Positions 11,972 to 63,992 are shown, numbered from the stretch's first letter. The stretch is 64,000 nucleotides of DNA from Nitrosomonadales bacterium (GCA_036676355.1 JAKFDA010000072.1:77705-141704); one strand, 5' to 3'. The notes: generated by a model not told the origin, from the sequence alone. Translations and numbers: made by a program.

Positions 11972-11997
11972 GTGATTAGCGGAACAGGACACTTCTA

Positions 11998-13125: not shown

Positions 13126-13126
13126 G

Positions 13127-14290: not shown

Positions 14291-14294
14291 AGCC

Positions 14295-31128: not shown

Positions 31129-31263
31129 CGAAACCGATATGCGCCATAAAAATTTGCAACGAGCGGTGCAGCGATTGCCTCTTTCCGGTGGTTCGGCCGG
31201 CGGCCGAAGCCAACGAACAACAGCGACTGCGACGAATCCTGGCGGTTGACGGGGACGAAGATC

Positions 31264-45964: not shown

Positions 45965-46801
45965 TCAGGGTTGCGCCGCCGCCTGGCCAGCAACGTGCCG
46001 GCGAATCTCGCGCAGCTTCGCTTTGAGGCGTTGCCTGTTGTCCGGCCCGGCGCGCAGCAGCATCTTCTGGCCGGCCGATAAAGCCTCGAGTTCGGGATTG
46101 ACGAAGCGGTAATTGACCCACGGGCGTACCCGTTCCGTCTCGCTCTCGACCGCGGTCAGTTTGACCTTGAGCGGACCGGCCGGATCTGGCGTGGCGAGCA
46201 GGTGATCGATAACAGCGACCAGCCGGTCGTTGAAATAGGCGTCGGGATAGCCCAGGTCCTCGTATGCGCGCTGGAAAAGCGCGTAGTGTTTTTTGTAGAG
46301 CGCGGCCGCGCCCGCCACGTCGACGGATTCGATGAAATGCACGAACGGCACGTAGCGTTTGCTGTTCTCGTCGCTGATCACGCCCTCGCTTTCGCTTCCT
46401 TCCACGGTGAAGCGCGTCGGGGCCGGATTCACCGGCCATACTTTCGGGCTGGCGTGGCTACGCGCCAGATTGTCGACCGTGGCTACCGCGCGCATGGGGA
46501 AGTCGTTGATGCGCAGAAACGAAGCGACCGCGTCACGGCCGAGCAGATCGATGAGCGCGGCATCGATACGCTGATCCGCTTCCTCCAGCGTCGGCGCGGA
46601 GGCAGCGTCTTTTTCCGTGGGCGTCACCGACTCGATCGGGTACTTGATTGCCGGTGCTTTGGGCGCGGGCTGCTCGATTTGCGGTTCGGTTGTGGGCGCG
46701 GCGATGTCCGCCGGCGGTGGCGCTTGTCGCTGCCACCACAAGAACGCAGCGCCGGCGGCGGCGACTACCAATAGCGCAAGGACGAGTACGGTTTTATTCA
46801 T
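45965..46801 (-). CDS. DUF3014 family protein (N-terminal membrane anchor)
   Basis: A TM anchor and Pro-rich linker are followed by ...LLGRDAVASFLRINDFPMRAVATVDNLAR...YVPFV..., as in DUF3014. Confidence 0.65.
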   Translation of the reverse strand: MNKTVLVLALLVVAAAGAAFLWWQRQAPPPADIAAPTTEPQIEQPAPKAPAIKYPIESVTPTEKDAASAPTLEEADQRIDAALIDLLGRDAVASFLRINDFPMRAVATVDNLARSHASPKVWPVNPAPTRFTVEGSESEGVISDENSKRYVPFVHFIESVDVAGAAALYKKHYALFQRAYEDLGYPDAYFNDRLVAVIDHLLATPDPAGPLKVKLTAVESETERVRPWVNYRFVNPELEALSAGQKMLLRAGPDNRQRLKAKLREIRRHVAGQAAAQP

Positions 46802-47307: not shown

Positions 47308-48825
47308 TTATGGCGCGCCACCGGAGGCTCGAGCCAAATGTGCTCGCAGGGCGCGAAGGATTGTCTCCCTCTCCGCGTCGTCTTCCTCGGCGCTCGTCAG
47401 GACGCGTGCTGCGTCGGCCTTCACCATCGCCGCGGCCAGGTAGGAAACGCTATAAGCGCCTGCGATACCACCATCGAGCGAGTAGTCGACGAGAATGCTT
47501 CCATAACCGGGGTTGTGGCCACTCGAAGCGACCATCATGGCGCCTCTGCTTTGATAGCTGCCCTCCACCCGGATACCCATGAGCCAGGATTTCCATAACG
47601 TTTCCGAAAGAGGAAAGTTCGCCACCAGCAATGCAAGGCTGCCGAATAGCAGCAGCGCGAATGAAGTCCACCAATGATCGAGTATCGGCTCGTGCGCAGC
47701 ACGCCACAGCATCACATAACCGATCGCCCCTGTAAGAATGCCGAGGACCCCGAACATCACGGCGAAATTGCGAACCGGCTTCGATGAACCGACCTGCTGC
47801 AGGACGGCGCCGTACTCTCCGGCCGCCAGCGCCACGAAAGTGCCGCCGGACGTGCTCCTTTGTTCATCGAGGCTTACGGCCAGGTCACCGACTTTTGAAT
47901 AGATCCCGAACGGTTTCGTCTGCGCGAGGATGCTTTTGAACGCATCCATGATGCTCTGAGGGTGGACGGCCGCCGAGTCGCTCAGTTGAATGCGCGAGCG
48001 CTCCAACTGTGCATCCGGCCCATCGGAGCGAAGCCAGGCGAGAACCAGGATTCCTCCTGCTATGACCACCGTTCCCACGACCGCGATCGTGCTCCACGGC
48101 TGAAGCGACGGCGCCAAGGCGACTTCCATTCCCAGAAAGTGCGTGACAAAAGCCATTAATGCGATGCCGGCAAGCAGAGCGCCAATCGTGTTGATGATGC
48201 GACCGGTGGAGAGCTTGCGCCCCCAATCCGCGGCGCTATAAATGTTCTTCAGCATTGCCAGCCAGTAGGCATATACCAGCAGGACGATTCCCGCAAATAG
48301 CCATGACAGCACCGCATCGGCCACTTCCGGGCGGCCGCCTGCCGCGCCGAAAACGCGAAGCAGCGGAACGAGGACCAGGACTATCGCTCCGAATGCGATG
48401 GCGGTAAGCGCGACCTCAACCACGCGCTGATAAGGCGCAGGCAGTCGAAAGAAGCGGTCGCTGGCGCGAGCCGCCCATCTTCCGACCCAACTGAGATATT
48501 TGTCGTTAGGCGAAACGCCGGAGAGCATCAGCGCCTCGATTTCGTCGGGTGCGTACGTTGCGCCGATTCCCCTGGGCTCCAGCGAGCGCGCGGGCAGGCG
48601 CAGGCCGGTGCGAAACGCCAAGGATCCATCCAGTATTGCGAACGCCAGCAAAACCAATGCGGCGAGGAATGCGATCGAACTCGAACCGGCGAACCCGTTC
48701 ATGATTCCCGCAGCCGATTCGAGCAATATCGATATCGCTAGAATGGCTGCTACGGCCGCTCTGATAGCCATGGGAATCGACAAAGGCTTCAGCGGATTTC
48801 TTTCGAGTTCAGTCTTTGTCGCCAT
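47308..48825 (-). CDS. Uncharacterised polytopic (about 8 TM) membrane protein, last gene of the GT2-HlyD operon
   Basis: ATG at 48825 lies 6 nt after GAGGTG; the TTG at 48897 is an alternative. TM pairs are separated by soluble loops of about 70 aa and about 110 aa, followed by a soluble tail of about 110 aa. I recognise no family. By spot counts GC is visibly lower than in flanking genes. Confidence 0.5.
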   Translation of the reverse strand: MATKTELERNPLKPLSIPMAIRAAVAAILAISILLESAAGIMNGFAGSSSIAFLAALVLLAFAILDGSLAFRTGLRLPARSLEPRGIGATYAPDEIEALMLSGVSPNDKYLSWVGRWAARASDRFFRLPAPYQRVVEVALTAIAFGAIVLVLVPLLRVFGAAGGRPEVADAVLSWLFAGIVLLVYAYWLAMLKNIYSAADWGRKLSTGRIINTIGALLAGIALMAFVTHFLGMEVALAPSLQPWSTIAVVGTVVIAGGILVLAWLRSDGPDAQLERSRIQLSDSAAVHPQSIMDAFKSILAQTKPFGIYSKVGDLAVSLDEQRSTSGGTFVALAAGEYGAVLQQVGSSKPVRNFAVMFGVLGILTGAIGYVMLWRAAHEPILDHWWTSFALLLFGSLALLVANFPLSETLWKSWLMGIRVEGSYQSRGAMMVASSGHNPGYGSILVDYSLDGGIAGAYSVSYLAAAMVKADAARVLTSAEEDDAERETILRALRAHLARASGGAP

Positions 48826-48901
48826 GAGCTTCACCTCGCTCAGTACCGATTCATGGTGCCGTAAAAACGTTTGCGCGCAATGGCTCGTGTCTTTCAACGT
48901 C

Positions 48902-49804: not shown

Positions 49805-50836
49805 TCATCCTCTGAGCGAGCGCAGCAGCAGCGCCACCGGGCTCAAATCCCACGCCACTTCAACGGTGGTGAACAACGGCGGCAGATCCTGCCCCGGATC
49901 GATTGCGATGCGGACCAATTGCTCGCGCTGCGTGCTCTCGAACGCCTTCTGGAATTCCTGCGGCAGTTGCGAAGCGACCGGCAGCAGCGCCTCGACCTTG
50001 CCGGTCAACACCTGGAAACCGGTGCGCACCTGTACCGCATCGCCGGGCTTGACGGTGTAAAGCGTACCGGTCGGCACATACGCCAGGACATAACTTTCGC
50101 CGTGGTAGATGCGCATGATCGGCTCGCCCGGTCGCACCACGGCGCCCGGCTGCACGCGTACTTCGGATGCGGTGCCGTCCACCGGCGAGGTCAGGATGCC
50201 GCCGGCGTAGGCGGTGCGCAGATCGTCGAGGCTCGCCTGTGCACGTTGCACGCTGCGTTCCAGTTCCGGCACTTGCGCTGCGATGACTTTCGCTTCAAGT
50301 TCCAGTTCGCGCAAATCGGCGACGCTGTCGTAAGCGTCGTGTACCACGCGCGCGCGCTGCATGATGGTGATCATGCCCGCTTCCTTGAATTTCTCCACCC
50401 TGCGCCACTCTTCTTCGGAGACAGCCGCGCGTCGCCGCGCATCGGGCAGCATCGCGTCGATGCGTCCGCTTTTGAGTTTCATCTCGCCCAATGCCACCTG
50501 ATATCGAACCAGCTCGGTGGTCATTTTTGCCATCGAGTCGGCCATTTCCTGCGACGAGAGTCGCGCGACGGTGCTTCCGCGCGTGACGGGCGAACCCTCC
50601 GAAACATCGAGCGAAACGATGCGCGCGGTATGTTCGGAGGCCACTGCGGCCGCTTCGCGCGTCACCATCCCTTCGGCCTTCAGATAAAGCAGGCTGCCGG
50701 CGGTCAGATCGATCGCCCACGCGCCGAGCCCGAGCAGCAGACCGATGTAGATGTATTTGCCGAAGCGCCCGCGTTTGCGCACACGCGGTTCGGTACGCAG
50801 GGCATCCACACGCTGGGGTTTACGGATGTATTTCAT
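49805..50836 (-). CDS. HlyD-family membrane fusion / periplasmic adaptor protein
   Basis: It has an N-terminal TM (YIYIGLLLGLGAWAI), a lipoyl-like motif ...VSLDVSEGSPVTRGSTVARL, a long coiled coil, ...ILTSPVDGTASEVRVQPGAVVRPGEPIMRI and a beta-barrel domain. Confidence 0.8.
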   Translation of the reverse strand: MKYIRKPQRVDALRTEPRVRKRGRFGKYIYIGLLLGLGAWAIDLTAGSLLYLKAEGMVTREAAAVASEHTARIVSLDVSEGSPVTRGSTVARLSSQEMADSMAKMTTELVRYQVALGEMKLKSGRIDAMLPDARRRAAVSEEEWRRVEKFKEAGMITIMQRARVVHDAYDSVADLRELELEAKVIAAQVPELERSVQRAQASLDDLRTAYAGGILTSPVDGTASEVRVQPGAVVRPGEPIMRIYHGESYVLAYVPTGTLYTVKPGDAVQVRTGFQVLTGKVEALLPVASQLPQEFQKAFESTQREQLVRIAIDPGQDLPPLFTTVEVAWDLSPVALLLRSLRG

Positions 50837-50851
50837 GGCACAGTCTTCCTG

Positions 50852-52114
50852 TCAGAACTGGTCTTGCGCGTTGTGGACCTTGAGCGGGTAATAGTCGTCG
50901 CGATAGGAGCGGCGCAGCACCAGCTCGCTCACGTAAGCGATCAGACGGTTGAGGCGCTGGTAATAGCCGACGTAGAACGTCTGCGCCGGCAGATAGGGAA
51001 CCAGGCCGAGCATGCCGGGTCGGCCATGAAACATCCACGCGACGCCGAACTCGATGCACTTGAACACGAAGTTGATCGCGTACAGCGACAGCATGATGAT
51101 CAGCGCGAAACGCCCGTAATGCGTCACCGCCCAGATCAGATAAATAACGAAGCTGAAGGTGAGGAAGACGTTGAACCAGAGCAGATTCAGAATCGCGAAC
51201 ATGTCGTCGAAAGAGAAATTGTCCGGCAGAGGGTTGAACACCACCCGCCATTTGCGCAGCCGGTGACGGATCAGGCTGCGACTCCAGCGCATGCGCTGTC
51301 GCCACAGCGCTTCGTGCGTCGCCGGCACTTTGGTCAAGGCCCAGGCTTCCGGCACGAAAACCACTTTCCATCCGGCGCGGCGCACCTTGACGGTGATGTT
51401 CGAATCGTCACCCGGACCGACATCCCAGCGGCCGACCTGATCGATGGCTTGACGCCGGAACGCACCGAACGCGCCCGAAACGATCATCAGCCAGTTCATC
51501 ATCGAGGTGAACTGGCGGCCCACGGTGATGTTGCTGTAGTACTCGATCGCCTGCATGCGCGTCAGCAGCGACTCTTCCAGATTGCGCACCTGAAGGTTGC
51601 CGCTGACTGCCCCGATGCGCGGGTCGGCGACCAGCGGGGAAACGAGTTGCGACACAGCATCGCGGTCGAACGATGTATCGATGTCGAGGACCAGAATGAT
51701 GTCGTGCTTGCAGTAATGCAGCGCGAGGTTCAGTCCGGAGACTTTCCCGCCGCGCGTGCCGCAACGGAACACGTTGTCGACCATCCCGTGCTGCAGCAGT
51801 GCGACGGCGGCTTCACCCATGCCGTCGGTCGAGCCGTCGTCCACGACGATCAGTTGCAGATTAGTGTGCGTCTGTTCGCGCAGCGACATCACCGAACGGC
51901 GCAGCCCGTCCGCTTCATTGAAACCGATCAGCAGCACGCTGACCGGCACGTTTGGATCAGCTTTGGGATATTTCCTACCGAAGGCCGCATGAAAACCGAC
52001 CGCAAAAGTCGACAGGCAATAGCGCGGCATTTCGAACAGCCAGAAAAACCAGAACACAGTCAGTACGCCCGCCATGTCGAGCGAACGCATGAAGTTGATC
52101 GATTCCTGCAGCAT
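50852..52114 (-). CDS. Membrane-embedded processive family-2 glycosyltransferase (polysaccharide synthase; PgaC/NodC/HAS/BcsA clan)
   Basis: 420 aa. Motifs VVDDGSTD, LDIDTS, GAFGAFRR, GDDSN and QRMRW (QxxRW) are present. TM helices flank the catalytic domain, 2 N-terminal and about 3-4 C-terminal. There is no PilZ domain. Confidence 0.85.
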   Translation of the reverse strand: MLQESINFMRSLDMAGVLTVFWFFWLFEMPRYCLSTFAVGFHAAFGRKYPKADPNVPVSVLLIGFNEADGLRRSVMSLREQTHTNLQLIVVDDGSTDGMGEAAVALLQHGMVDNVFRCGTRGGKVSGLNLALHYCKHDIILVLDIDTSFDRDAVSQLVSPLVADPRIGAVSGNLQVRNLEESLLTRMQAIEYYSNITVGRQFTSMMNWLMIVSGAFGAFRRQAIDQVGRWDVGPGDDSNITVKVRRAGWKVVFVPEAWALTKVPATHEALWRQRMRWSRSLIRHRLRKWRVVFNPLPDNFSFDDMFAILNLLWFNVFLTFSFVIYLIWAVTHYGRFALIIMLSLYAINFVFKCIEFGVAWMFHGRPGMLGLVPYLPAQTFYVGYYQRLNRLIAYVSELVLRRSYRDDYYPLKVHNAQDQF

Positions 52115-52120
52115 GCGAAT

Positions 52121-53476
52121 CTACTTGCTCAGTTGTTCGATGAGCAGAGGCACCTGTTCTTCGTTGAGTCGTGCCGCCAGTTGCACCCGCCGGCCCAGCG
52201 CTTCGGCCGCACGCAACTGCAAGCGTTCGATAAGCACATCGCATTTGTCGTTGGAGGTCTCCGGTAGCAACAGCAGGAGTCGCCGATCGACTGCGGCGAA
52301 AAAATCCGTCTCGCGCACCGTCTCGCGCACGAGGTCAATCATCAGGCTCTGAATTTGCGCGGCGCCCGCCCTGCCGAATTCGGCAATCGCATCGGCCGTC
52401 GCAGCGGTATCGAGCTGCAGCAACGAGTAGGGTCGACGGTAGCGCGTGCTCAGCCGATGGCTCATGTCGAGCGACAGGGCGAAGTCGCGCGGGGTGCGCC
52501 ATCCCGGCATGCCGTTGAGAAAATTTTCGAGATTGATGCCGGGCAGCCGGCCTTCCATCACCGCCGAATGCGCGACCTCGGTCGGGCTGTAGCTGAACCA
52601 GTCCATGGTCTGCGCATCGATCCCCCGCGTGGTAGCGTGGCAGTCGGCGCAGCGAAAACGTACCTCCGGCTCAGGCGAGGTCTTATGACAGTCGAGACAG
52701 AAGCAGACCGGGCCGGGCGCGTCGTAATCCACGCCGAAGTGGCGCAGCGTGCGGTTGCACTTCGGGCACACCAGTTCGTCGCCCCGCAGGAATTGCGGCT
52801 TCGGCGCTTGTTCGCCGCAGCGATAGTGGTGAATCAATGTCTGCTGTTCGAGATGCGCCGAGCCGCAGGCAGGGCACACATCGCGCGCCAGCATGCGGCT
52901 GCCGTTACAATCGTCGCACAGATAAGTACGATCGCTGAAATCGCGCTTGAGCAATTTTGCGGCCGCGAGCGTTTCCACGATCGAACGCTGATCGGCAATG
53001 CCGGCGAGCAACGGATAGTCGAACATCGACGGCCGATCCGCGTTCAGGCGCGGCGCGATATCGCACTCCCGGGTGATCGACAGGGCGAGCACCGTCAGGC
53101 CGACGCGATCATCATTGTTGGGAATGGCGGCGAGTGCGGCGCATTTTTCCCGCAACGACATGGCGGTCTCGATGCCGCGTGCAAGACTGTCCGGCCCGGC
53201 GGTTGGCGCGACAAAATCGGCGCGCGCCGACTGTGCGCCGCTTAAATCGATCACGGCGGCGAGCAGATTCCCGCCATGCGCCATGCGCGCGTAAACGCTG
53301 TTCGCATCCGAGCCGGGCAGAAGAATGACTGCATCCACCGAGGCGGACTCGTCCAGCTCAACGAGCGAAACGGCATGGCGTTTAAGCGCTTCACTGAAGA
53401 AGGGCGACAGCGTGCCCGCCAGGGCAATGCGCAAGACTCGCGCGTGTTGCGTTGAAACCTGGGGCGCCGACGCCAT
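52121..53476 (-). CDS. Multi-zinc-ribbon protein with C-terminal degenerate GGDEF domain retaining the RxxD I-site (putative c-di-GMP receptor)
   Basis: ATG at 53476 lies 7 nt after GAGGAG. Five CxxC pairs are present (CDDC, CPAC, CPKC, CLDC, CADC). The C-terminus aligns without gaps to the remembered PleD GGDEF core, with GGEEF->DRRLL while RETD is conserved 5 residues upstream. Confidence 0.6.
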   Translation of the reverse strand: MASAPQVSTQHARVLRIALAGTLSPFFSEALKRHAVSLVELDESASVDAVILLPGSDANSVYARMAHGGNLLAAVIDLSGAQSARADFVAPTAGPDSLARGIETAMSLREKCAALAAIPNNDDRVGLTVLALSITRECDIAPRLNADRPSMFDYPLLAGIADQRSIVETLAAAKLLKRDFSDRTYLCDDCNGSRMLARDVCPACGSAHLEQQTLIHHYRCGEQAPKPQFLRGDELVCPKCNRTLRHFGVDYDAPGPVCFCLDCHKTSPEPEVRFRCADCHATTRGIDAQTMDWFSYSPTEVAHSAVMEGRLPGINLENFLNGMPGWRTPRDFALSLDMSHRLSTRYRRPYSLLQLDTAATADAIAEFGRAGAAQIQSLMIDLVRETVRETDFFAAVDRRLLLLLPETSNDKCDVLIERLQLRAAEALGRRVQLAARLNEEQVPLLIEQLSK

Positions 53477-53861
53477 ACTGCTACTCCTCAACGCGAATCG
53501 TTGGCGGTGCGTTTTTTAACGCTGACTGGCATTTGTGCAAGCTTTGCGCCGAGGGGAGAAGCTATTGATTTACCATGCGATCCGGGCCCGTTCGGAGACT
53601 CGCTGTAAGGTATGGCGACGCCCTCGTGTATGCGTCGAGGACGAAACGGCGTTTGTCAGCAGCCGGCCACGGGCGCGCTTACTTAGTTGCCAAACGTGAG
53701 GAATCGCGGACTCGTTGGTTCGACGGGTTCACCATACAAACGTTTTCGCGACAGACTTAGTCGGATCTCCCCTCGATCGGTACATCGTTTCGCCAAGTAC
53801 AAACCGTTGAGGCACGAACAGGACAAGGCTACCCGCAGGCTGCTTGCGATGGATCGTCCGG

Positions 53862-55757
53862 TTACACGAGCGCGGACGGTCGCGGTTGCAAGTCAGGCGT
53901 TGCAGGTGCGGATGCATGCGCCTGCATCCATAGCTCGAGCATCATGAGTATCCACACCATCTCGCCGTAGTAACCGGGATGCTCATGCAGTTTGGACTGG
54001 AACAGATCATTGACGAAACGCGGTTGAATCCAGCCGCGATCGCGTATCGCTTCCAGCGACCCGAACGCCAGTTCATGCAGCGCGGGATGATTGGTGACCC
54101 AGCGCCCGAATGGCAGGCCGAAACCGTGCTTTTTCTTATTGATGATTTCCGGCGGCAGAAAGTCGCTTAGCGCTTTCTTGAAAAAATATCGCAGTTTCGT
54201 GCCGCGCAGTTTGTAATTCGGCCGCAGGCGTAGCGAAAAATCGACGAGTTGATCGTCGATCAACGGGAAGGCGGCTGTGGCGCCGGCGAGCGTGGATGTC
54301 GTGATGACTTTGCGCAGATCGTTATCGGCCAGCGTGTACTTCCAGTCGTACGCCAGCAGGCGGTTGATCAGCGCGCCGGCGGGCGTCGCCTCGTAAACAC
54401 GACGCTGTTGCTCGCCGGGTTGATTGCGATCGATCGGAACAAGCCAATCGTCGGTAAGCACTTCGTGCTCACCCAGACGACGGAGCAGGTTATAGCGTTC
54501 GAGCCGATCCGGCACCGAAGCGCTGGCATATTGATGAAAACTTACGGCCTTCCGTATCAGTGGCAGTTTCGCCGCTGACGATGATTGCGACAGCGATCCG
54601 ACCAGCCCGCGCAAGGGCGCCGGGACATGACCGTACAGACTGAGCGCGCGTTGAAGTGCATAGCGCGTGTTGCCACCGAACAACTCGTCGCCGCCGTCAC
54701 CGCCGAGCATTGTGTCGACGCCATCCTGCTTCGCGATCAGGGCGCAGTAGTAGGCCGGCAGCGCGGAAGAATTGCCGAACGGTTGATCGTAGGCCGCGGC
54801 GACGCGAGGAATGCCGGCCACCAGATCATCGGCCGTAAGGTAATGTTCGTGATGCCGGCAGTCAAAGTGCTGCGCGGCAATGCGCGCGTAAGCGGTTTCG
54901 TCGTAGCCCGCGGCGGCGAAGCCGATCGAGTACGTGCGTGCGCGTTGCTCCGTTACGCGCGTCAACATGCCGGCGATTGTGGAACTGTCGGTGCCGCCGC
55001 TGAGAAAGCAGCCGACATTGCCTTCGGCTTCGCGTGCCACGGCGTTGCGCAGAAGTTCGCGGAACTCCTTGCGCAGTGAACGATACGAAGCATCGCTGTG
55101 TTCTTCGAACACCGGCACCCAATGTTTGTGCAGTGCCAGACGGCCGCTGTCCAGATGCGCGGTTTCGCCGCCGAGCAGTCGATGCACGTCGTTGAAAATG
55201 GTTTGCGGCGCCGGGATGAAGTGGAACCAAAGGTAGTTGTAAATCGCCTGCCGATCGAATTCGACGTTGCATCGGCGCCCGACCGCATCGGCGCGATCGG
55301 AAAAACTGAGACGGGAGCCTTCGATGTGAAAGCACAGCGTTTCGCGCGCGAAACGATCGCATGCGAGCAGCGCCCGGCGGGTATGGAAATCTGCCAGGAA
55401 TACGCCGTAACTACCCTCGACGCTCTTTGCGGCATTGGCCTGATTCACGCGCCACGCTTCGGCCCAGCCGTCCAGCACCTGTTCGCGCTGTGGCTTGCCG
55501 GTGCTGCGGAATCGCGGTGTCCCGATCGACGCGATCAAGAGCGGGCCGCGCATGCCGCAGATCACCCGCCGCGGGTCGAAATGCAATTCGAGACTCGCGT
55601 CATTCAGCGAGCCGGCGGCATAGGCTTGATCGCTGAATCGCGGCGTCTGTCCGCCTTTGAGTTGAGCAAAGTCGATCCAGCCATCGAGCATCGTGCGCAA
55701 TGGCGCGGGAATGTCGTGCAGGGAGAGATTCGTCACGGCAGTTCGCGCCGTGCGCAT
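53862..55757 (-). CDS. Asparagine-synthase-family protein with degenerate glutaminase domain (synthetase/PP-loop domain intact)
   Basis: The PP-loop FLSGGTDSS and the C-terminal AsnB-like region are intact. There is no Cys2 (it begins MRTART...). The RLSIxD, NGEIYN and SD(S/C)EV motifs present in the two canonical copies are absent. Confidence 0.8.
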   Translation of the reverse strand: MRTARTAVTNLSLHDIPAPLRTMLDGWIDFAQLKGGQTPRFSDQAYAAGSLNDASLELHFDPRRVICGMRGPLLIASIGTPRFRSTGKPQREQVLDGWAEAWRVNQANAAKSVEGSYGVFLADFHTRRALLACDRFARETLCFHIEGSRLSFSDRADAVGRRCNVEFDRQAIYNYLWFHFIPAPQTIFNDVHRLLGGETAHLDSGRLALHKHWVPVFEEHSDASYRSLRKEFRELLRNAVAREAEGNVGCFLSGGTDSSTIAGMLTRVTEQRARTYSIGFAAAGYDETAYARIAAQHFDCRHHEHYLTADDLVAGIPRVAAAYDQPFGNSSALPAYYCALIAKQDGVDTMLGGDGGDELFGGNTRYALQRALSLYGHVPAPLRGLVGSLSQSSSAAKLPLIRKAVSFHQYASASVPDRLERYNLLRRLGEHEVLTDDWLVPIDRNQPGEQQRRVYEATPAGALINRLLAYDWKYTLADNDLRKVITTSTLAGATAAFPLIDDQLVDFSLRLRPNYKLRGTKLRYFFKKALSDFLPPEIINKKKHGFGLPFGRWVTNHPALHELAFGSLEAIRDRGWIQPRFVNDLFQSKLHEHPGYYGEMVWILMMLELWMQAHASAPATPDLQPRPSALV

Positions 55758-55793
55758 TGAAGGAGCGGCATTGGAGGCGCTGCTGTCGTCATT

Positions 55794-56555
55794 TCATTCT
55801 TTCCATTCTCCGACTTTCTGCAGCTTGTTCTTGAGACCGGGCAGATTGAAGCCGCGCGAATACGCTTTCTTCGCATAGTCGCGCGCCTTGTCGTAGTCCT
55901 TCAGATCGAAGTAGGCGAGACCCATGTTGTAGTACAGGTTGCCGCTCGTGCCGTGCTCTTCGGCCTTGCGGAACTGATTCAGCGCTTCTTTCGGTTTGTC
56001 GTCCTTGAGCAGTTGCACGCCGTAGACGCCGCGCACATTCGGATCGTCCGGGGCGAACGCCAATGCGCGCTGGAACCAGCAGTCGAGCGTGAATTCAGAG
56101 CCTTTCGGTTGGATGTTTTTTTCGCGCCGCGAGAGATTCGCCATCGCGTTCAAAGCACGCGGATGGTTGGGGAAGGCGCGCAGCGTGTAGGAAATATCCT
56201 TGCCGATCACCGCATTCGACGCGCCCTTGCGCAGATGTTCCACTTGTGGGGTGAAGTGGTAGTCCTCGACGATCTTGCGCCGCTCCAGCGGGGCTGTGCG
56301 GTAGTCGAAAGGGCCAAAGTGGTTTTCCAGCGAGCCGCAGGCGCCGTCCTGAGCAAGGACTGTCGGCACGTTGAACAAGGCGGCGGCGAAAATCACCGCA
56401 GCGGCGTGTATGAACTTGATGGAGCGTTGATGGTCGATACGTCCGTCTTCCGTTCGCCCTGAGTCGGCCGAGGAGTGAACAGGAACTTTCGCCGTCGATG
56501 GGTTCGCCATGAGCGGCTTTGCGAGGCGCTTGATCGGATATGCATTAACTTTCAC
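55794..56555 (-). CDS. TPR-like repeat protein with internal signal-anchor
   Basis: GTG start lies 5 nt after GGGAGG. A hydrophobic segment FIHAAAVIFAAALFNVPTVLAQD occurs about 45 aa in. The C-terminal repeats ...YYNMGLAYFDLKDYDKARDYAKKAY are TPR-like. Confidence 0.55.
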   Translation of the reverse strand: MKVNAYPIKRLAKPLMANPSTAKVPVHSSADSGRTEDGRIDHQRSIKFIHAAAVIFAAALFNVPTVLAQDGACGSLENHFGPFDYRTAPLERRKIVEDYHFTPQVEHLRKGASNAVIGKDISYTLRAFPNHPRALNAMANLSRREKNIQPKGSEFTLDCWFQRALAFAPDDPNVRGVYGVQLLKDDKPKEALNQFRKAEEHGTSGNLYYNMGLAYFDLKDYDKARDYAKKAYSRGFNLPGLKNKLQKVGEWKE

Positions 56556-57516
56556 GTAGACCTCCCGTCAGAGTGCTGGACACCTTGATCGCGGCGCAAC
56601 GCGCGGCGGCGCCGACGCAATAGGCAAGGGTCCTGGGACGAAAATCGAAATGATGCAGGGCGAGCTTGAACGACTCGTACGCAACGCAGACGTCGCCCCG
56701 CCGGTAGTGCCGGTAGCCGTGGCTGAAGCACAGTCGCGACAGCCGGCGATCCAGGCTCGCGCGATCGACGCGTTGCCCGTCCGCGCCGGTTTTGCCGAAT
56801 CGTTCGAGTGCGCGCAGCAGCACGCGATATTCGTTGTTCTCGCGCCGTTCCGCCGCCGTGGTCGAGGCGGCGTGGATGCGATACAACGCGAGCGTGCGAG
56901 ACAGCTTCGCCACGCGAAAGCGCTGCGTCGCGCGTAGCCACAGGTCGTAGTCCTCGCCGGTGCGCAGGCTTTCGTCGAAGCCACCGATCGCTTCGAACAC
57001 GCTGCGGTGCGCAACGGCTGTGATTGAATGAATCATGCTGTCGAGCAGCATGTCGGTGTAGATCGAGCCGGATGCAGCCTCGTCGATGTCATCCCCGCAC
57101 TCGTTGGACGGGCGCATGAATTCTTGCGCGCTGCCCGTGTCGCCGCGCCAGCGTTGCCAGCGGCCGTACACGATGCTGATGTCCGGGTGCCGCGCGAAGT
57201 ACGCTATCTGTGCGCTGATCTTGCCGGGCAGCCACAGATCGTCGGCATCCAGAAAGGCGATGTATTCGCCTTGTGCGATGGAGAGTGCGCGATTGCGTGC
57301 CGCGGCCGGGCCGCTGTTCGGCTGGCGAACGAGCCTGATGCGATGCTGCAGCGGAGCGATCGCGTCGGCCGTGCCGTCGGTCGAACCATCATCGACGACG
57401 ATGACTTCGAGATTCGGGTAGTCCTGCGCGAGCACGCTCTCCAACGCGTCGCGTATATAGGCAGCGCAGTTATAGGCGGGAATGATCACCGAGACGCGCG
57501 GCGTGGTCATGAGCAT
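56545..57516 (-). CDS. GT2 glycosyltransferase
   Basis: Contains VSVIIPAYNCAAYIRDALESVLAQDYPNLEVIVVDDGSTDGT and FLDADD. Confidence 0.85.
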   Translation of the reverse strand: MLMTTPRVSVIIPAYNCAAYIRDALESVLAQDYPNLEVIVVDDGSTDGTADAIAPLQHRIRLVRQPNSGPAAARNRALSIAQGEYIAFLDADDLWLPGKISAQIAYFARHPDISIVYGRWQRWRGDTGSAQEFMRPSNECGDDIDEAASGSIYTDMLLDSMIHSITAVAHRSVFEAIGGFDESLRTGEDYDLWLRATQRFRVAKLSRTLALYRIHAASTTAAERRENNEYRVLLRALERFGKTGADGQRVDRASLDRRLSRLCFSHGYRHYRRGDVCVAYESFKLALHHFDFRPRTLAYCVGAAARCAAIKVSSTLTGGLRES

Positions 57517-57517
57517 C

Positions 57518-58723
57518 TCAATGTGCTTGCGTGCGCGTTTGCCACGGCGGCATGCCGGGCAGTGTCGCGCCGTACAGTCGCGCGGCGATGCGGATCAGCT
57601 TCAGCCGCATGGTGCGGTCGCTCGAGCGCCGGCGTGCGACGCCGAGCAGCCCGCGCGCCAGAGCATGCAGCACCGCACGGCCCGTACCGCTGCGACGCAG
57701 CCCGCGCGCCGCGCTGTAGAAATTCAGCGGATCTTCCAGCAGACGCAAGACGAAATAGCGCTGCTGTGCAGCCTGCGCGATCGCGCGGCGCTCGTCGCGG
57801 GTGGGGCTCATCCCGCTGCCGTCGGTCAGCGCGGCGTAACTCAGTGCGTCTTCGATCATTTCCTCGTCCAATCCCTTGCCGGCCATCACGCTCATGCGAT
57901 TCAGCAAAGCCAGCCGCTTGAGCGAGGCGTCGCACACCGTGTCGCGTACCGGTATGAGGTATTCGCCCAATGACGTATCCGCACGCAGCGCGCGTCCCAG
58001 CATGCGGTCGTGATGCGCAAACAATTGCTCGCGTTCATCGTGCGCATAGCGCTGCGCGGCCGGTCCGCGCTCGCCTTCGTGACGACGGAACACGAAGGTC
58101 GGCCGATCGAGCAGGGCCACCGGATAGCGGCGTACCAGTCGCAACAGCATTTCGTAATCTTCGGAGGCCACCAGATCCTCGCGGAATGGCCCGACCTGCC
58201 GGTAACACTCGCTCCGCACCAGCGCACCCTGCAGTGTGGTGAAGCAACTGCGCATGAACTGCAGACGGAAACTACTTTCATCGACCTTGGGCCAGTGATG
58301 CTCCGCCGTGGGCTCGATCGCGCCGTTCTCGCCGCTGCGTCCCCAAAGATGGTTGCTCAGCACCACCTTGGCGTCCGGACGACGATCGAGCAGTGCAAGC
58401 CGGCTCTGGATCGAAGTGAGCATCGCGACGTCGTCGTCGTCGAATATCCATACCCATTCGCCCGTGACCATCGGCAGCGCGAAATTGAGCGCGCGCGGCT
58501 TGCCGCCATTCTCCTTGCGTACGTAGCTGATGCGACGGTCGCAACAATTGTTCACGCTTCGCACGCGTTCCGCGGTGTCGTCGGTCGAGCCGTCGTCCAC
58601 CACGATGATCTGATGCGCCGGCACCGTTTGGGCGAGCAGCGAATGCAGACATTCCTCCAGCAGCGCGGCGCGATTGTAGGTCGGCACCAGTACGGAAACG
58701 GTGCGCGTATGCGTGCCGCTCAT
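57518..58723 (-). CDS. GT2 glycosyltransferase with about 200-aa C-terminal extension (paralogue A)
   Basis: ATG at 58723 overlaps the upstream TGA (ATGA). Contains VSVLVPTYNRAALLEECLHSLLAQT and IIVVDDGSTDDT. FDDDDV occupies the DxD position. The upstream half of the 747-aa track ORF is an Arg-rich artefact. Confidence 0.8.
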   Translation of the reverse strand: MSGTHTRTVSVLVPTYNRAALLEECLHSLLAQTVPAHQIIVVDDGSTDDTAERVRSVNNCCDRRISYVRKENGGKPRALNFALPMVTGEWVWIFDDDDVAMLTSIQSRLALLDRRPDAKVVLSNHLWGRSGENGAIEPTAEHHWPKVDESSFRLQFMRSCFTTLQGALVRSECYRQVGPFREDLVASEDYEMLLRLVRRYPVALLDRPTFVFRRHEGERGPAAQRYAHDEREQLFAHHDRMLGRALRADTSLGEYLIPVRDTVCDASLKRLALLNRMSVMAGKGLDEEMIEDALSYAALTDGSGMSPTRDERRAIAQAAQQRYFVLRLLEDPLNFYSAARGLRRSGTGRAVLHALARGLLGVARRRSSDRTMRLKLIRIAARLYGATLPGMPPWQTRTQAH

Positions 58724-59637
58724 GCAGCGCCCGCCGGGGTCAGGTCGATAACGGTCGGCGCCGCTTGTTCGCGTCGATACAGCACGCGGTTGCCGTCTGC
58801 GCTTTCCCTCACCGGCACGTACCCGGCCTGTGCGAAGGCGCGCTGCGCCCGGCGGATGGTCGGCGTGCCGATTTCGTGCGGGTGGAAGGCGATGAGTACT
58901 TTGCGAATGCCAAGCTCGATCACGTCCTTGATCAACTGACATTCCGCCCCATCGACGTCGATGATCAGAAAGGTCGGACGATGCGCGCGCAGAGCATCGC
59001 GCAGCGTGCGGCCGGGCACGAGGAACTTGCGTGCGTATCGACCGGGGCTCGTGTCGCCCAACGTGTCGCTTGCATGCAACGTGCGCATGCCGGTAACGCA
59101 ACCGAGCGCGCAGTGTTCGAGTCGCGGTGCAATGCCGTTCAGCGCGAACGTATCGCGCGCGGCCTGCACCATCGCCGGGTGCGATTCGAAGGCAACGATT
59201 CGATTCGACCCGAGCCGACGCGCGCACAGCGCGGCAATCACGCCGATACCGCTGCCGACCTCCATCACCACGTCGTCGTCTTCCAGTGCGTCGCGCACCA
59301 GTCGGCGCTCCACGCCGGCATAGGTGCGTGCGAGCAGATCGCGTGCGAGTTGCAACGAATAGTGCGGACGCAACTGCACCTTCACCCCATCCAGTTCGAC
59401 CACCCGTCCCGTAGTGCGTGCAACCGCGACATGAAGTCGCGCGCTGACCAGATCGGCACAGCGCCGCGGGTTGCTCAACATCCAGCGGCCCGAGCAGTAG
59501 CCGCGTTTGGCGTAGTCCATCGCGGCATCCATTAGGCTGTCGTTGCGCTTCTCCGTCGCGCTCGGCAGACTTATCGCGGCACGCTGCCATCCATGAGGAG
59601 TGGGTTCGTCGTCGCTGTAAAACGGGATCTGGCGCAT
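58720..59637 (-). CDS. FkbM-family SAM-dependent methyltransferase
   Basis: VVMEVGSGIGVIAA is SAM motif I. FLIIDVDGAECQLI matches the FkbM-type K-x-D-x-E-G-x-E region. The start is assigned to the ATG at 59637. Confidence 0.7.
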   Translation of the reverse strand: MRQIPFYSDDEPTPHGWQRAAISLPSATEKRNDSLMDAAMDYAKRGYCSGRWMLSNPRRCADLVSARLHVAVARTTGRVVELDGVKVQLRPHYSLQLARDLLARTYAGVERRLVRDALEDDDVVMEVGSGIGVIAALCARRLGSNRIVAFESHPAMVQAARDTFALNGIAPRLEHCALGCVTGMRTLHASDTLGDTSPGRYARKFLVPGRTLRDALRAHRPTFLIIDVDGAECQLIKDVIELGIRKVLIAFHPHEIGTPTIRRAQRAFAQAGYVPVRESADGNRVLYRREQAAPTVIDLTPAGAA

Positions 59638-59642
59638 GGATG

Positions 59643-60869
59643 TCACCGTTCCAGGTAAGCGCGGACGACAGGCCGCGGGCCGGCAAAGGCAGCAACACGC
59701 AGCCACACGCGCCAGAGAACGGATCGGCCGAGCGCCACATGTTCGGATTTGCGAGCGGCATGCAGCAATCCGCGCGCCAGGCAACCGGCGAACAATCGCA
59801 TCAATGGTCCGGACGAACGCGCACGCAGCTCGCGCAGGAAGCCCTTGGGATCTTCCTGCACGCGGGCGAGCCAATACGGTTGCGTCATGGCGCGCGCGCA
59901 CAGTGCCCGTTCTTCGCGACTCAATCCGCCGATGCCGCAATGCGCTTGAATTGCCGCAGCGGCGGCGAGATCGTCGAGCGCTTCATCGACGAGGCCTTTG
60001 CTTGCCATCACGCTCATGCGCGTGAGTAGCGCAAGGCGCGATTCGCAGGGCGTGAGCGCACGGCCGGATACCGATGGAGCGAGATACTCCCCGAGCGCGA
60101 GTTCGCCTCGAATGCGCCGGCCGAGTCGGCCGTCGAATTCCATCCATATTTTTTTACGTTTAGACTCGTCGTGACGCAGCGCCTTCGGTCCGCGCATGCC
60201 GGCGTGGTCGCGCCACACGAATGTCGGTTCGTGCAACACCGCGGCCTTGTAACGACGCAGCAGTCGCACGGTCATTTCGTAGTCGGCGCTGCGCAGAAAA
60301 CCGGTATCGAAGTTGCCGACGGCACGCAGGCAGTCAAGCCGGATCAGCATGCCCTGAAACAGAAACAGATGATTGCGCAGCGTGCTGATGAACAGGCGGT
60401 GATCGGCCGGGCCGCGTGCCGATATGCGTCGACCGCGTTGAATTCGCCCATCCGGACCGTCGATGCCGAGATAGTGTTCGCTCATCACGATGTCCGCTTC
60501 GGGCTGCGCGTGCGCCGCGTCCAGTCGACGCTCGATGGAATCGCGCAGCGCGACGTCGTCATCATCGAAGAACCACAGCCATTCGCCGGTGGCGAGTTCC
60601 AGCGCGCGGTTGAACGCCGCCGGCCGACCGGCATTGGGTTGCCAGACATAAGTGATGCGATCCGCGTAGCGCGCAATGACGCTATGCGTGTCTTCGTCCG
60701 AGCCGTCGTCGATCAGGATGACCTGCTCGGGCGGGTGCGTCTGACGCAGCACACTGTCGAGACACTCGTTCAGGTAGGTGGTGCGGTTGTAAGTCGCGAT
60801 GATTACCGTGACGGTGTCGCGATCCGGTCCATTACGGGACGCAGCCGATGTGGAGATCATCGAATTCAT
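59643..60869 (-). CDS. GT2 glycosyltransferase with about 200-aa C-terminal extension (paralogue B)
   Basis: ATG at 60869 overlaps the flippase TGA. Contains VTVIIATYNRTTYLNECLDSVLRQT, ILIDDGSDEDT and FFDDDDV. The C-terminal region is collinear with paralogue A (GEYL..., LALLxRMSVMAxKGL). Confidence 0.8.
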   Translation of the reverse strand: MNSMISTSAASRNGPDRDTVTVIIATYNRTTYLNECLDSVLRQTHPPEQVILIDDGSDEDTHSVIARYADRITYVWQPNAGRPAAFNRALELATGEWLWFFDDDDVALRDSIERRLDAAHAQPEADIVMSEHYLGIDGPDGRIQRGRRISARGPADHRLFISTLRNHLFLFQGMLIRLDCLRAVGNFDTGFLRSADYEMTVRLLRRYKAAVLHEPTFVWRDHAGMRGPKALRHDESKRKKIWMEFDGRLGRRIRGELALGEYLAPSVSGRALTPCESRLALLTRMSVMASKGLVDEALDDLAAAAAIQAHCGIGGLSREERALCARAMTQPYWLARVQEDPKGFLRELRARSSGPLMRLFAGCLARGLLHAARKSEHVALGRSVLWRVWLRVAAFAGPRPVVRAYLER

Positions 60870-62365
60870 GTCTGCCTCCTCGTGCGCCAGGGGCTTTGCC
60901 GCAGGACACCCCCGGCCATGCGCAGCAGGCGCGCTTCGGCGCCGTCTTCGCGACCGCCCAGATGCCATAGCAGCAGCAGCGAAATCGTGTAAACAATTGC
61001 GCCGGCCAGAATCAGCGCCAGCAGCATCGCCAGTTGCGAAGCGGTCGATACAGGCTGCCAGTAGCCCGTACCTCGTAGTGCAAGCAGCGCTCCGGTCATC
61101 AGCAGCGACGCGGCGACTGGCCGGAACAGCGCGGCGAGGACGCGTGTGCTGCGCAGCTCCAGATATGTTCGCAGCAACCAGATGTTGAGCGTGCCGGTGG
61201 CGATGTAGACGCCGGTCAGGCCCCAGGCCGCGATGGCAAGGTCGTAGTACGTCAGCAGGAAGAAGAACAGGGGGAAGGCGAGCACGATGTACAGCGCCAT
61301 CAGCTTGGCCGACAGATGCTGTTGTCCCAGCGCAAGATAGGTTGTGCCGAAGGTGCCCTGCAGCGAACGGATGGCGCCGTATATCGCGAGTGGAGCCATC
61401 AGCGGAATCACCGAGACCCACTTCGGCCCGAGCATCACCATCACGAACAGATCGGCGAGACACGACAGGCCCGCGGCGACCGGCAGGGACAATACGGCCA
61501 CGAGCTGGAACACGGTGATGAATCCGTCGGCGAGCCTGGGCTTATCGCCCTGCAGGCGGGAGTAGCCCGGATACACCGCGCGCATAAGCGGGTAGGTCAG
61601 CTCCGTGGTCGGCAGGCTCGATACTTCATAGGCAATGTTGTACGCGCCGAGCGCCGCCGGGCCGGCTCGGTTGCCGAGGATGAAATCGGTGCCACGCTGC
61701 TGAATGAAGAACAGAATGCTGTTGCCGGTCACCCACTTGGAGAAGTGGAAAAAATCTTTCGCATGCGAGAGCGTGAGGCGCGGCCGGTACGAAAACAGCG
61801 CATAGCTCAGCAGCACACTGACCACGCTGCGAGTGAGTATGCCGAACAGCAGCGCCCAGAAACTCTGCCAGTAAAAGGCCAGGCCGACGGTAACGGTGAA
61901 GGACGCAAGCTTGGAGATCAGGCCGAGCGCGAAGATTCGCTTGAAGCGCAGCGCCTGTTCGTGCAGCACTACGCCGATGTTGCGAAAGCTGCCGAAAAAA
62001 GCGGTGAAGGCGAGCACGCCCATGATGCTCGCGACGCGCGGCTCATGGTAGATCGCAATCGCCACGGGGGCGAGCGCGAGCAGCAGCGCTGCTTTGAGCA
62101 CGCCGATGCAAATGTTCAGCGTCCACGCCGAATCCAGATGCGCGCGCTCCTGCGTCTGGCGCTGGATGATCGCCCACTCCAGTCCCACCGCGGTGGTGGC
62201 CTCCAGTGCGGCGAGAATAGACGTGCCCATCGCGATCAGACCGAAATCAGCCGGTACCAGCAGACGCGCGAGAATCAGGGTGCTGACCAGACCGATGATG
62301 CGCGTCGACATGCGCATGGCCAAGGTCCAGCCCGCACTTTTGGCGATTTCGTTGCCGAGGCTCAT
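60866..62365 (-). CDS. Wzx-type oligosaccharide flippase (MOP/PST family)
   Basis: 499 aa from the ATG at 62365, with about 12-14 TM helices. The N-terminus ...AKSAGWTLAMRMSTRIIGLVSTLILARLLVPADFGL is the typical polysaccharide biosynthesis protein opening. Confidence 0.8.
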   Translation of the reverse strand: MSLGNEIAKSAGWTLAMRMSTRIIGLVSTLILARLLVPADFGLIAMGTSILAALEATTAVGLEWAIIQRQTQERAHLDSAWTLNICIGVLKAALLLALAPVAIAIYHEPRVASIMGVLAFTAFFGSFRNIGVVLHEQALRFKRIFALGLISKLASFTVTVGLAFYWQSFWALLFGILTRSVVSVLLSYALFSYRPRLTLSHAKDFFHFSKWVTGNSILFFIQQRGTDFILGNRAGPAALGAYNIAYEVSSLPTTELTYPLMRAVYPGYSRLQGDKPRLADGFITVFQLVAVLSLPVAAGLSCLADLFVMVMLGPKWVSVIPLMAPLAIYGAIRSLQGTFGTTYLALGQQHLSAKLMALYIVLAFPLFFFLLTYYDLAIAAWGLTGVYIATGTLNIWLLRTYLELRSTRVLAALFRPVAASLLMTGALLALRGTGYWQPVSTASQLAMLLALILAGAIVYTISLLLLWHLGGREDGAEARLLRMAGGVLRQSPWRTRRQT

Positions 62366-63390: not shown

Positions 63391-63992
63391 GTTGCGCCCC
63401 CATGCGGCGGAAAAACACACAGCACCGGACGGCCGTCGCGATCGGGTTGTCGACGCAGCGATTCACAGTGCTGGATGTGCAGCCATTGGCGCGTGCCGAC
63501 GCAATAGAACGTCACGGTGCCGAGCGGAACGGCACCGAGTCGGCTGTGAGCGTTGAGCGAACCGGCGTTGTAGGCGTTGACGCGACTCATGGTCCATTGC
63601 ACGCCCCGCTCGCGTAGATAGGCAAAGGCCGTATCCCATAAGCGCAGAAAAACGCGACTCGCGCGATGGGCCGGGTGAACCCATACGTCAAAGTCCCACG
63701 CCGCCTGCGTGGCCGGTCGCGGCAGGAACAGGCAGCGCACAGCGTCCTCCTCGTAGGCATCGTGCTTGAGCCAGAGAAAACCGAGCAGCATGTCGGCCTT
63801 GAATGCGGCAACACATTCCGCGCCGTGTGCCAGGCGCGCGCGGACGACGGCGGCCGGACGCGGCGACTGCGCAATCAATGCCGCACACATCGGGTGATTC
63901 TCAGTGATGCGCTCGACGCGCAGCGCGCCGGCACGAGGTGCAGGAAGCAGTGGCGTCGGCGCGACCGGTTGCGCCGTCAATTGATACTTCAC
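63387..63992 (-). CDS. GNAT-family N-acetyltransferase (tentative)
   Basis: WVHPAHRASRVFLRLWDTAFAYLRERGV...NAYNAGSLNAHSRLGA fits GNAT motif A/B spacing. The upstream end is close to the window edge. Confidence 0.55.
   Translation of the reverse strand: MKYQLTAQPVAPTPLLPAPRAGALRVERITENHPMCAALIAQSPRPAAVVRARLAHGAECVAAFKADMLLGFLWLKHDAYEEDAVRCLFLPRPATQAAWDFDVWVHPAHRASRVFLRLWDTAFAYLRERGVQWTMSRVNAYNAGSLNAHSRLGAVPLGTVTFYCVGTRQWLHIQHCESLRRQPDRDGRPVLCVFPPHGGAT

Follow-up and report, generated by a model that had tools for sequence, protein, structure and literature searches.

The predicted sensor gene and its operon

We analysed a 64,000-nucleotide (nt) stretch of DNA from a Nitrosomonadales bacterium (GCA_036676355.1, JAKFDA010000072.1:77705-141704), referred to below as the window, which carries on its minus strand a gene for a protein of 451 amino acids (aa) with a three-part architecture, in which a CheY-like pseudo-receiver (aa ~14-113) is followed by TackOD1 and then, at the C-terminus, by a degenerate GGDEF domain (Table 1). 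The gene leads an operon with a family 2 glycosyltransferase (GT2) and a HlyD-type adaptor, and its product, which we regard as a probable cyclic di-GMP (c-di-GMP) binding regulator of these partners, is called the sensor in what follows. An identical 451-aa sequence is present in public assemblies (P0001), and its mates in the 90%-identity cluster are annotated only as hypothetical proteins from Burkholderiales metagenome-assembled genomes (MAGs). The ATG at 53476 was preferred as start codon over an in-frame TTG upstream at 53491 because of the AGGAG with its 7-nt spacer. The protein is acidic (isoelectric point, pI, 5.8) and no transmembrane segment was found in it by the Kyte-Doolittle method (maximum 19-residue mean 1.34). 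All peptides quoted in an initial annotation of this DNA, made from the sequence alone, were found in the translation: RIALAG, DAVILLPG and PETS, the pairs CDDC (187-190), CPAC (201-204), CPKC (237-240), CLDC (260-263) and CADC (276-279), and RETD (388-391) and DRRLL (397-401).

That annotation had also placed the gene at the head of a synthase operon, and gene calls, Pfam domains and spacing bear this out. The processive GT2 encoded immediately downstream, which has the D, DxD, (T/G)ED and Q(Q/R)xRW motifs expected of such enzymes (as DDG, DID, GDD and QRMRW), matches PgaC_IcaA (2.8e-47, below cut-off) and NodC in NCBIfam, and a minimal cellulose-synthase-like GT2 (6yv7) and hyaluronan synthases in the PDB. 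Only GT2-type families match it in Pfam and NCBIfam, with no c-di-GMP-sensing domain of the PilZ type or resembling the BgsA C-terminus. The gaps between successive genes are 6 nt (sensor-GT2), 15 nt (GT2-HlyD) and 0 nt (HlyD to the gene for a 300-aa protein), suggesting co-translation. The 300-aa protein begins with a hydrophobic segment, possibly a signal peptide or anchor, and had no Pfam, NCBIfam, PADLOC or PDB match; 16 homologues were found, none with a Pfam domain, the two named ones belonging to Burkholderiales MAGs, and among the fetched loci its gene is present only in L001. The tight run ends with a hydrophobic protein of about 505-529 aa, for which no Pfam, NCBIfam or PADLOC match was obtained and which is not conserved with the cassette. 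These last two genes are accessories restricted to close relatives of this lineage, and their products may be lineage-specific accessories, perhaps a hydrolase or modifier, of the polysaccharide system. Downstream of the operon lies a gene for a DUF3014 protein (45965-46801, minus strand), a homologue of which stands beside the cassette in the closest relative (L001:12668-13432) and in none of the other loci.

Conservation of the arrangement was assessed in 50 loci collected by a pattern scan with one genome per species, covering Alpha-, Beta- and Gammaproteobacteria and including Microvirga, Halomonas, Stappia, Chelativorans, Thalassospira, Roseibium, Breoghania, Defluviicoccus and Spiribacter. 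A GT2 gene follows the sensor gene immediately and on the same strand in all 50, and a HlyD gene comes next in 47, the contig ending in the other three; open reading frame (ORF) ends overlap in L003 and L009. No further gene family is conserved around the cassette in these loci, neither an outer-membrane factor nor a hydrolase, and the conserved unit is therefore sensor-GT2-HlyD. Cultured organisms with an orthologue of the sensor include Halomonas daqiaonensis CGMCC 1.9150, Thalassospira lucentensis DSM 14000, Stappia sediminis and Pseudazoarcus pumilus. In L003 (Halomonas daqiaonensis, 11699-12994) and L009 (Chelativorans sp. J32, 12962-15423) the HlyD gene is followed by a gene of the UDP-glucose/GDP-mannose dehydrogenase family, in L009 together with a NAD-dependent epimerase, an arrangement that recalls the hasA-hasB pairing. 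The UDP-sugar dehydrogenase genes, together with the similarity of the GT2 to hyaluronan synthases, PgaC and NodC, hint from sequence at a polymer containing N-acetylglucosamine or uronic acid.

Some apparent features of these loci were set aside. A sensor-GT2 fusion in L038 (7872-10481, 869 aa), which would have spoken for a physical complex, was rejected as the product of a 1-nt frameshift, since reading in the +1 frame restores the usual C-terminus and stop codon; the locus is from a MAG that, to judge by its contig name, was assembled from long reads. The ORF of L048 (7893-9485, also a MAG) cannot be aligned to the family after about aa 275, where it turns Arg/Pro/Ala-rich, and looks frameshifted. 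We take L038 and, by its appearance, L048 to be assembly errors or pseudogenes and not new architectures. In the window, the GT2 and HlyD genes are overlain in antisense by a 782-aa ORF on the plus strand (49919-52267). It is no gene but a shadow ORF such as GC-rich DNA typically contains; similar ones inflated the clustering of ORFs from related loci. A terminator-like hairpin with T-run lies inside the sensor coding sequence (52310-52333, minus strand), arising from a VRET-VRET-DFF peptide repeat that contains the RETD motif. A promoter and terminator scan returned fewer sites than in shuffled sequence, this RETVRETD-coding repeat being the sole in-gene hairpin, and the hairpin is probably coincidental. 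PADLOC defence models gave zero matches.

Table 1. Positions of the sensor gene, its motifs and neighbouring genes, numbered from the first nucleotide of the window.
Feature	Position	Strand	Basis or remark
Sensor (TackOD1-degenerate-GGDEF protein) coding sequence, 451 aa plus TAG stop	52121-53476	-	translation; coordinates verified
Shine-Dalgarno AGGAG, 7-nt spacer to ATG	53484-53488	-	sequence read
N-terminal pseudo-receiver, aa 14-113	53138-53437	-	AlphaFold2 model, weak Foldseek matches
TackOD1 domain, aa 130-296	52589-53089	-	Pfam PF18551
Metal-ligand block C187 to C279: CDDC, CPAC, H217-YR-C220, CPKC, CLDC, CADC	52640-52918	-	
Degenerate GGDEF domain, aa 329-451	52124-52492	-	family profile against PDB; Foldseek; Pfam GGDEF in relatives
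R345, equivalent of WspR R198	52442-52444	-	alignment and numbering
R388-E-T-D391, core I-site RxxD	52304-52315	-	aligns to 3ign RQSD and WspR R242xxD245
V396-DRRL-L401, remnant of GG(D/E)EF hairpin, one-residue deletion	52274-52291	-	HMMER alignment
R418, aligned to Arg of ERI motif in helix after PET	52223-52225	-	family 'veRi' on 3ign 'CERI'
Processive GT2, 420 aa; DDG, DID, GDD, QRMRW; N- and C-terminal membrane segments	50852-52114	-	Pfam GT2
HlyD-family membrane-fusion protein (periplasmic adaptor), 343 aa	49805-50836	-	Pfam HlyD_3, HlyD_D23; NCBIfam EmrA/MdtN-type; PDB EmrA
300-aa protein, hydrophobic N-terminal segment	48902-49804	-	start codon directly abuts HlyD stop
Hydrophobic protein of ~505-529 aa, last gene of tight run	47308-48897	-	probably multi-pass membrane protein, read from sequence
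Wzz/GNVR chain-length protein	7785-9338	+	
Exosortase EpsH + DUF3485	16232-17818	+	
UDP-glucose/GDP-mannose dehydrogenase	26571-28127	+	
Wzy_C/DUF5935 protein	31246-32583	+	
Asparagine-synthase-like amidotransferase	53862-55757	-	best NCBIfam match XrtA/PEP-CTERM amidotransferase, below cut-off

Domains and proposed signal-input residues of the predicted sensor

The N-terminal 312 residues were modelled by AlphaFold2 with a predicted local distance difference test score (pLDDT) of 94. The order of elements in aa 14-113 of the model is beta-alpha-beta-beta-alpha-beta-alpha, a CheY/flavodoxin-like fold. Compactly aligned Foldseek neighbours of this region are all weak (root mean square deviation 4-5.5 Å, TM-target 0.43-0.48); they comprise the atypical receivers AmeGlnR (4o1h; E=7e-3, prob 0.99), TadZ (4lda) and HP1043 (2pln), which are described as phosphorylation-independent, and also type II dehydroquinases, another flavodoxin-like fold. 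The 451-aa protein had no match to Pfam REC (PF00072), and no phospho-acceptor Asp was found after the third strand, which ends AVILLPGSD where the REC-bearing relatives discussed below have an LLD-type Asp; D87, in RADF, is kept in 45 of 51 sequences. We refer to the region as a pseudo-receiver because it lacks a Pfam REC match and has ILLPG at the phospho-acceptor position. Fold and sequence thus agree with the initial description of a receiver- or Rossmann-like module without phospho-acceptor context.

TackOD1 is the only strong Pfam domain in the protein (PF18551; E=1.4e-46; score 158.9 bits, gathering cut-off 32; 14-186 of the 188 model positions covered). The annotation's tentative use of this name was thereby borne out, and RefSeq calls a homologue 'TackOD1 domain-containing metal-binding protein'. 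The domain has been defined by five CXXC motifs and one HXXC (PMC5847659). Besides the five CXXC pairs that had been recognised at the outset, the sensor has the previously overlooked sixth knuckle H217-x-x-C220, giving the complete pattern with 11 Cys, and the ligands are 98-100% conserved in the 51 sequences. The initial estimate of at least two zinc ribbons can be amended accordingly, since the predicted ligands, taken in motif order, could group as three four-ligand (Cys4 or Cys3His) metal sites. In the AlphaFold2 secondary structure the domain has a helical start, which may be winged-helix-like judging from the order of its elements, followed by a zinc-knuckle beta module. Foldseek with the N-terminal 312 residues gave no significant PDB match for the TackOD1 part, and Pfam gave a faint match to a rubredoxin-like zinc ribbon (zf-ChsH2, E=0.021). 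The domain is acidic (pI 6.1, net charge -3). An exhaustive phmmer search with the TackOD1 segment recovered 2,003 clusters at 50% identity, 1,325 of them at E<=1e-10.

Homology of the C-terminal domain to GGDEF domains was shown by a family profile and a structure model because single-sequence searches gave nothing useful, NCBIfam returning only DgcQ, faintly (E=0.057). The profile, built from 29 homologues, matches about 40 solved diguanylate-cyclase domains, including 3ign (E=2.1e-14), DgcR (1.4e-10) and PleD (1w25, 1.3e-4). The full-length AlphaFold2 model (pLDDT 87) has GGDEF domains as all of its top 50 Foldseek matches in the PDB (prob 1.0, TM-target ~0.5), and relatives of the same architecture (P0017, P0049, P0058 and P0059) score above the Pfam GGDEF gathering threshold. 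The C-terminus is thus firmly a GGDEF-fold homologue at the family level. The initial annotation had named the lack of both a GGDEF match and structural similarity as grounds for giving up its assignment; the profile supplied the former and Foldseek the latter.

Residues of the active site (A-site) have been lost. HMMER mapping to WspR pairs D356 with D209, A361 with K214, I364 with N217, A373 with D226 and -DRRL with G251-GEEF255, in keeping with the destroyed A-site proposed at the outset. The distance from D391 to P405 is one residue shorter than canonical, and the residue for which HMMER leaves a gap is the first G of GGEEF. Consequently, the alignment to PleD put forward earlier, which had no gaps, cannot hold for both RxxD and PET, being off by one after the hairpin, while its two main outcomes, loss of the A-site and retention of RxxD, stand. 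GG[DE]EF is present in none of 151 family representatives, so that diguanylate catalysis is excluded family-wide.

Residues of the inhibitory site (I-site) have fared differently. R388 and D391 map to R242 and D245 of WspR, and R345 to R198. In WspR the core I-site is R242xxD245; around an intercalated c-di-GMP dimer it is completed by R198, contributed by an adjacent GGDEF domain (PMC2270323). In the profile alignment to c-di-GMP-bound 3ign, RetD falls on RQSD and PEt on PET; RxxD is therefore at the canonical I-site position claimed for it, about five residues before the former hairpin, as the WspR alignment and conservation also indicate. The ERI arginine of 3ign, and with it R418, is at what we take to be the position of PleD R390. 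Among family members without REC domains, D391 is the sole invariant residue of the C-terminal domain, and R345 (95%), R388 (90%) and R418 (90%) are within its top eight positions by conservation; the full RxxD is kept in 38 of 43 such loci. By alignment, the C-terminal domain keeps all four I-site residues that bind a c-di-GMP dimer, namely R388, D391, R418 and R345.

A contrast comes from eight loci (Roseibium, Breoghania and a Hyphomicrobiales MAG; L037, L039-L042, L044, L046 and L047) in which the same GT2-HlyD cassette encodes a longer sensor of 620-934 aa, where the core of pseudo-receiver, TackOD1 and C-terminal domain is preceded by a genuine REC domain or a pair of them (lowest Pfam E 1e-33); similar variants are P0056 and P0057. 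Kinases of PAS-HisKA-HATPase type are encoded nearby in seven of the eight, all but L044. R345 is kept in 0/8 of these REC loci and in 41/43 non-REC loci, R388 in 1/8 and 39/43, D391 in 1/8 and 42/43, and R418 in 0/8 and 38/43. Of the 2,003 clusters at 50% identity the best 150 were compared, and none of 22 REC forms retained RxxD, against 77 of 113 non-REC forms (Fisher p=5e-10, not corrected for phylogeny or shared ancestry). That I-site residues are lost in forms with a REC input speaks for the I-site as a functional input for signals, dispensable once phosphorylation supplies the input, and for TackOD1 and the C-terminal fold as a common output core. Since a sister group with a decayed I-site has gained REC domains, often with a PAS kinase nearby, the same TackOD1 core could be driven by c-di-GMP or by phosphorylation. 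Separately, in P0059, of REC-TackOD1-degenerate-GGDEF type, RxxD persists as RKVD and GGDEF has become RAADF.

Proposed regulation of the GT2-HlyD machine and its alternatives

We consider the sensor to be a c-di-GMP-binding regulator of the downstream GT2-HlyD polysaccharide machine, with a probability of roughly 0.68. That it activates this machine directly and post-translationally, by contact, is a narrower proposal to which we would give slightly less than an even chance. The proposed sequence of events is that a cytosolic c-di-GMP receptor would switch on the exopolysaccharide machine encoded directly downstream, comprising the processive GT2 synthase, the HlyD-type periplasmic adaptor and probably a TolC-like outer-membrane factor encoded elsewhere. 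The ligand would occupy the I-site pocket of the dead GGDEF domain, where it would probably cross-link two C-terminal domains and rearrange the TackOD1 zinc modules. Such bridging is probable in view of R345, the counterpart of the arginine that acts in trans in WspR, where dimer-mediated GGDEF cross-linking (PMC2270323) serves as the template. The TackOD1 modules, as the output, would then dock onto one or both of two surfaces, the cytosolic side of the GT2 and the short, basic tail at the N-terminus of HlyD, and this contact would license polymerisation and export, the latter by a route analogous to that of BgsBA. A separate receptor is plausible because c-di-GMP domains of the PilZ or BgsA type are lacking from the GT2 itself, and a partner-binding subunit fits a soluble, acidic protein without transmembrane segment better than a DNA binder does. 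On a wider view, held more tentatively still, TackOD1 would be a hitherto unrecognised output module, stabilised by zinc, with interchangeable inputs and direct gating control over secretion machines that span the envelope, and the cassette would be a new and widespread synthase-dependent exopolysaccharide system. The machine would then be a GT2 synthase-HlyD(-TolC) exporter in bacteria and type IV pili in Thaumarchaeota, and the input either c-di-GMP, through cross-linking of the dead GGDEF domain, or phosphorylation, through REC.

The sensor could instead be a c-di-GMP-responsive transcription factor that binds DNA upstream of its own operon and never touches the synthase. Zinc ribbons often bind nucleic acids, and the predicted element order of aa ~124-200 (helix, short strands, helix, beta hairpin) would be compatible with a winged helix. 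The original definition of TackOD1 was moreover that of an output domain in archaeal response regulators, some of which also possess a winged helix-turn-helix (wHTH), a 385-nt non-coding region precedes the sensor gene, and the first position in a regulated operon is common for autoregulators. Against this stand the acidity of TackOD1, the lack of any DNA-binding Pfam model and of any wHTH or DNA-binding structure among the Foldseek matches, and the fixed gene order in every one of the 50 loci with 6-nt spacing or overlaps, which implies stoichiometric co-production of the kind typical of complex subunits; we therefore regard a transcription factor as unlikely. Less likely again is a protein without c-di-GMP input, whose degenerate GGDEF serves structure or dimerisation only, or accommodates a different nucleotide; it would be a constitutive scaffold or assembly factor of the synthase or, through its 11 Cys and 3 His, a sensor of redox state or metals. 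REC-type relatives do keep the C-terminal fold without I-site residues, which implies a role of the domain beyond ligand binding, Cys4 sites of the kind seen in zf-ChsH2 can hold iron, and no cyclase gene is linked to any locus. The four residues kept at positions that contact c-di-GMP in WspR, PleD and 3ign, and lost together where a REC input is present, speak against it, since structural constraint alone does not explain coordinated conservation followed by coordinated loss. An active diguanylate cyclase with an unorthodox active site, to which we attach almost no probability, could appeal to the GGDEF fold and to the alignment of D356 with the first metal-binding Asp of WspR, but D356 is kept in only 8 of 51 sequences, and the residue mapping, with the hairpin deletion, the exchange of K, N and D for A361, I364 and A373 and the lack of GG[DE]EF in any member, led us to reject it.

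Several points weigh against a c-di-GMP receptor of this design. The GGDEF assignment in the initial annotation, which holds for the family, does not extend to the single sequence: of the two domains for which an hmmscan check had been suggested, TackOD1 was returned and GGDEF was not, even at E<=0.1, and phmmer with aa 310-451 (142 aa) reached WspR and 3ign in the PDB only at E 0.65-1.5. The residue mapping hence rests on family alignments and the AlphaFold2 model, in which the C-terminal helices at aa ~360-390 are of only moderate confidence (pLDDT 61-77). RxxD is absent from 36 of the 113 non-REC representatives, some of which may be truncated REC forms, and the contrast between REC and I-site forms may stem from one or two evolutionary events. 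No diguanylate cyclase gene, recognised as a canonical GGDEF ORF, was found in the window or within 8 kb of the 50 cassettes, which is neutral for a receptor of the cellular c-di-GMP pool. Finally, the sensor has no membrane anchor, unlike PelD of Pseudomonas aeruginosa, PssE of Listeria and YdaK of Bacillus subtilis; all three are membrane-anchored, and PelD also has a GAF domain.

Genomic surroundings and relation to known systems

The operon is not alone in the window, where at least three polysaccharide systems can be told apart. One is a large exopolysaccharide locus of the exosortase type at 7785-32583 on the plus strand, which includes two ORFs of about 640 aa (19028-20953 and 23618-25540) that start with MCG like N-terminal nucleophile (Ntn) amidotransferases, the likeness concerning the start only. 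A second cluster (53862-63420, minus strand) lies upstream of the sensor operon on the same strand, with the 385-nt gap between it and the sensor gene. Besides the amidotransferase gene in Table 1, inspection by eye indicated several GT2-like genes, a possible methyltransferase, a gene for a flippase-like membrane protein (60866-~62350) and a GT1-like gene (62362-63420).

The initial annotation had judged the sensor to belong to no described receptor class, which is an overstatement. Receptors consisting of a degenerate GGDEF with I-site only, encoded in synthase operons, are known for exopolysaccharide synthases: PelD (PMC2170427), PssE (PMC4125290), YdaK (PMC5422440) and BcsE (PMC7439463). 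New are the fusion to TackOD1, the soluble three-domain architecture and the three-gene cassette. The sensor resembles PelD, PssE and YdaK in its dead GGDEF domain with RxxD, its operon with a glycosyltransferase and its presumed c-di-GMP signal. It differs from them in having a pseudo-receiver and TackOD1 and in its GT2-HlyD partners, which are other than the Pel, Pss and Yda machineries, and no sequence relationship is detectable outside the GGDEF fold. In function the sensor would stand with these three and BcsE without belonging to any of their families: none of them has TackOD1, and the sensor has neither a GAF nor a GIL context. PopA is a further I-site receptor of the degenerate-GGDEF type. 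BcsE, a degenerate REC-GGDEF 'GIL' module of enterobacterial cellulose secretion (PMC7439463), is, like the sensor, soluble and cytosolic; it detects c-di-GMP by means of an I-site-like RxxD in a degenerate GGDEF, next to which it has a degenerate receiver-like domain, and it acts on a GT2 complex, as predicted for the sensor. However, BcsE lacks a zinc-knuckle or TackOD1 domain, and its partners are BcsQ, BcsR, BcsF and a synthase, BcsA, with a PilZ domain of its own. The GT2 of the present cassette has no such domain, and conservation of partners extends to GT2 and HlyD only.

On the side of the machine, the BgsBA system for mixed-linkage beta-glucan in Sinorhizobium meliloti has a c-di-GMP-activated GT2 and a HlyD-like protein, which together need TolC (PMC5567048, PMC13438883). 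Both it and the cyanobacterial cellulose synthase-HlyD-like-TolC system cited there share with the present cassette a processive GT2 with a HlyD-like adaptor, c-di-GMP control (here predicted) and an outer-membrane factor encoded elsewhere (here presumed). In BgsA the c-di-GMP site is on the synthase C-terminus, whereas the present synthase is short (closest to PgaC, NodC and hyaluronan-synthase types) and has a separate predicted sensor; the gene order is sensor-GT2-HlyD as opposed to bicistronic bgsBA. WspR and PleD share with the sensor a receiver-like N-terminus, a C-terminal GGDEF and the same I-site residues (R198, R242 and D245 of WspR; the R390 position of PleD). They are active enzymes, response-regulator diguanylate cyclases inhibited by their product, that use the I-site as a feedback brake; here catalysis is gone, the phospho-acceptor is missing and a TackOD1 of 170 residues is inserted between receiver-like and GGDEF domains.

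Published archaeal architectures of TackOD1 comprise the domain alone, REC-TackOD1, which as arCOG06883 occurs in thaumarchaeal type IV pilus loci, and REC-wHTH-TackOD1 (PMC5847659, PMC4858521). The bacterial and archaeal forms share the five CXXC and one HXXC, a position downstream of a signalling input and a place beside an envelope-spanning secretion or assembly machine. The archaeal list includes no GGDEF, and the genomic partner there is a pilus and not a polysaccharide synthase. A literature search on TackOD1 found only a domain census of 2018, in which its function is 'obscure', and an archaeal pilus survey of 2016, with no experimental work, and no description of the sensor-GT2-HlyD cassette was found. 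The principle is thus a familiar one, while the architecture, the conserved cassette and the exchange between I-site and REC inputs appear to be undescribed.

If the proposed reading is correct, it would provide a functional context for TackOD1, which has been catalogued since 2018 as a domain of 'obscure' function, and a soluble zinc-knuckle architecture would join the short list of degenerate-GGDEF c-di-GMP receptors. The I-site and REC forms of one core would constitute a clean natural experiment on how different inputs drive a single output. The cassette itself is a compact and portable unit of three genes, found in cultured marine and soil Proteobacteria including Halomonas, Thalassospira, Stappia, Roseibium, Microvirga and Pseudazoarcus.

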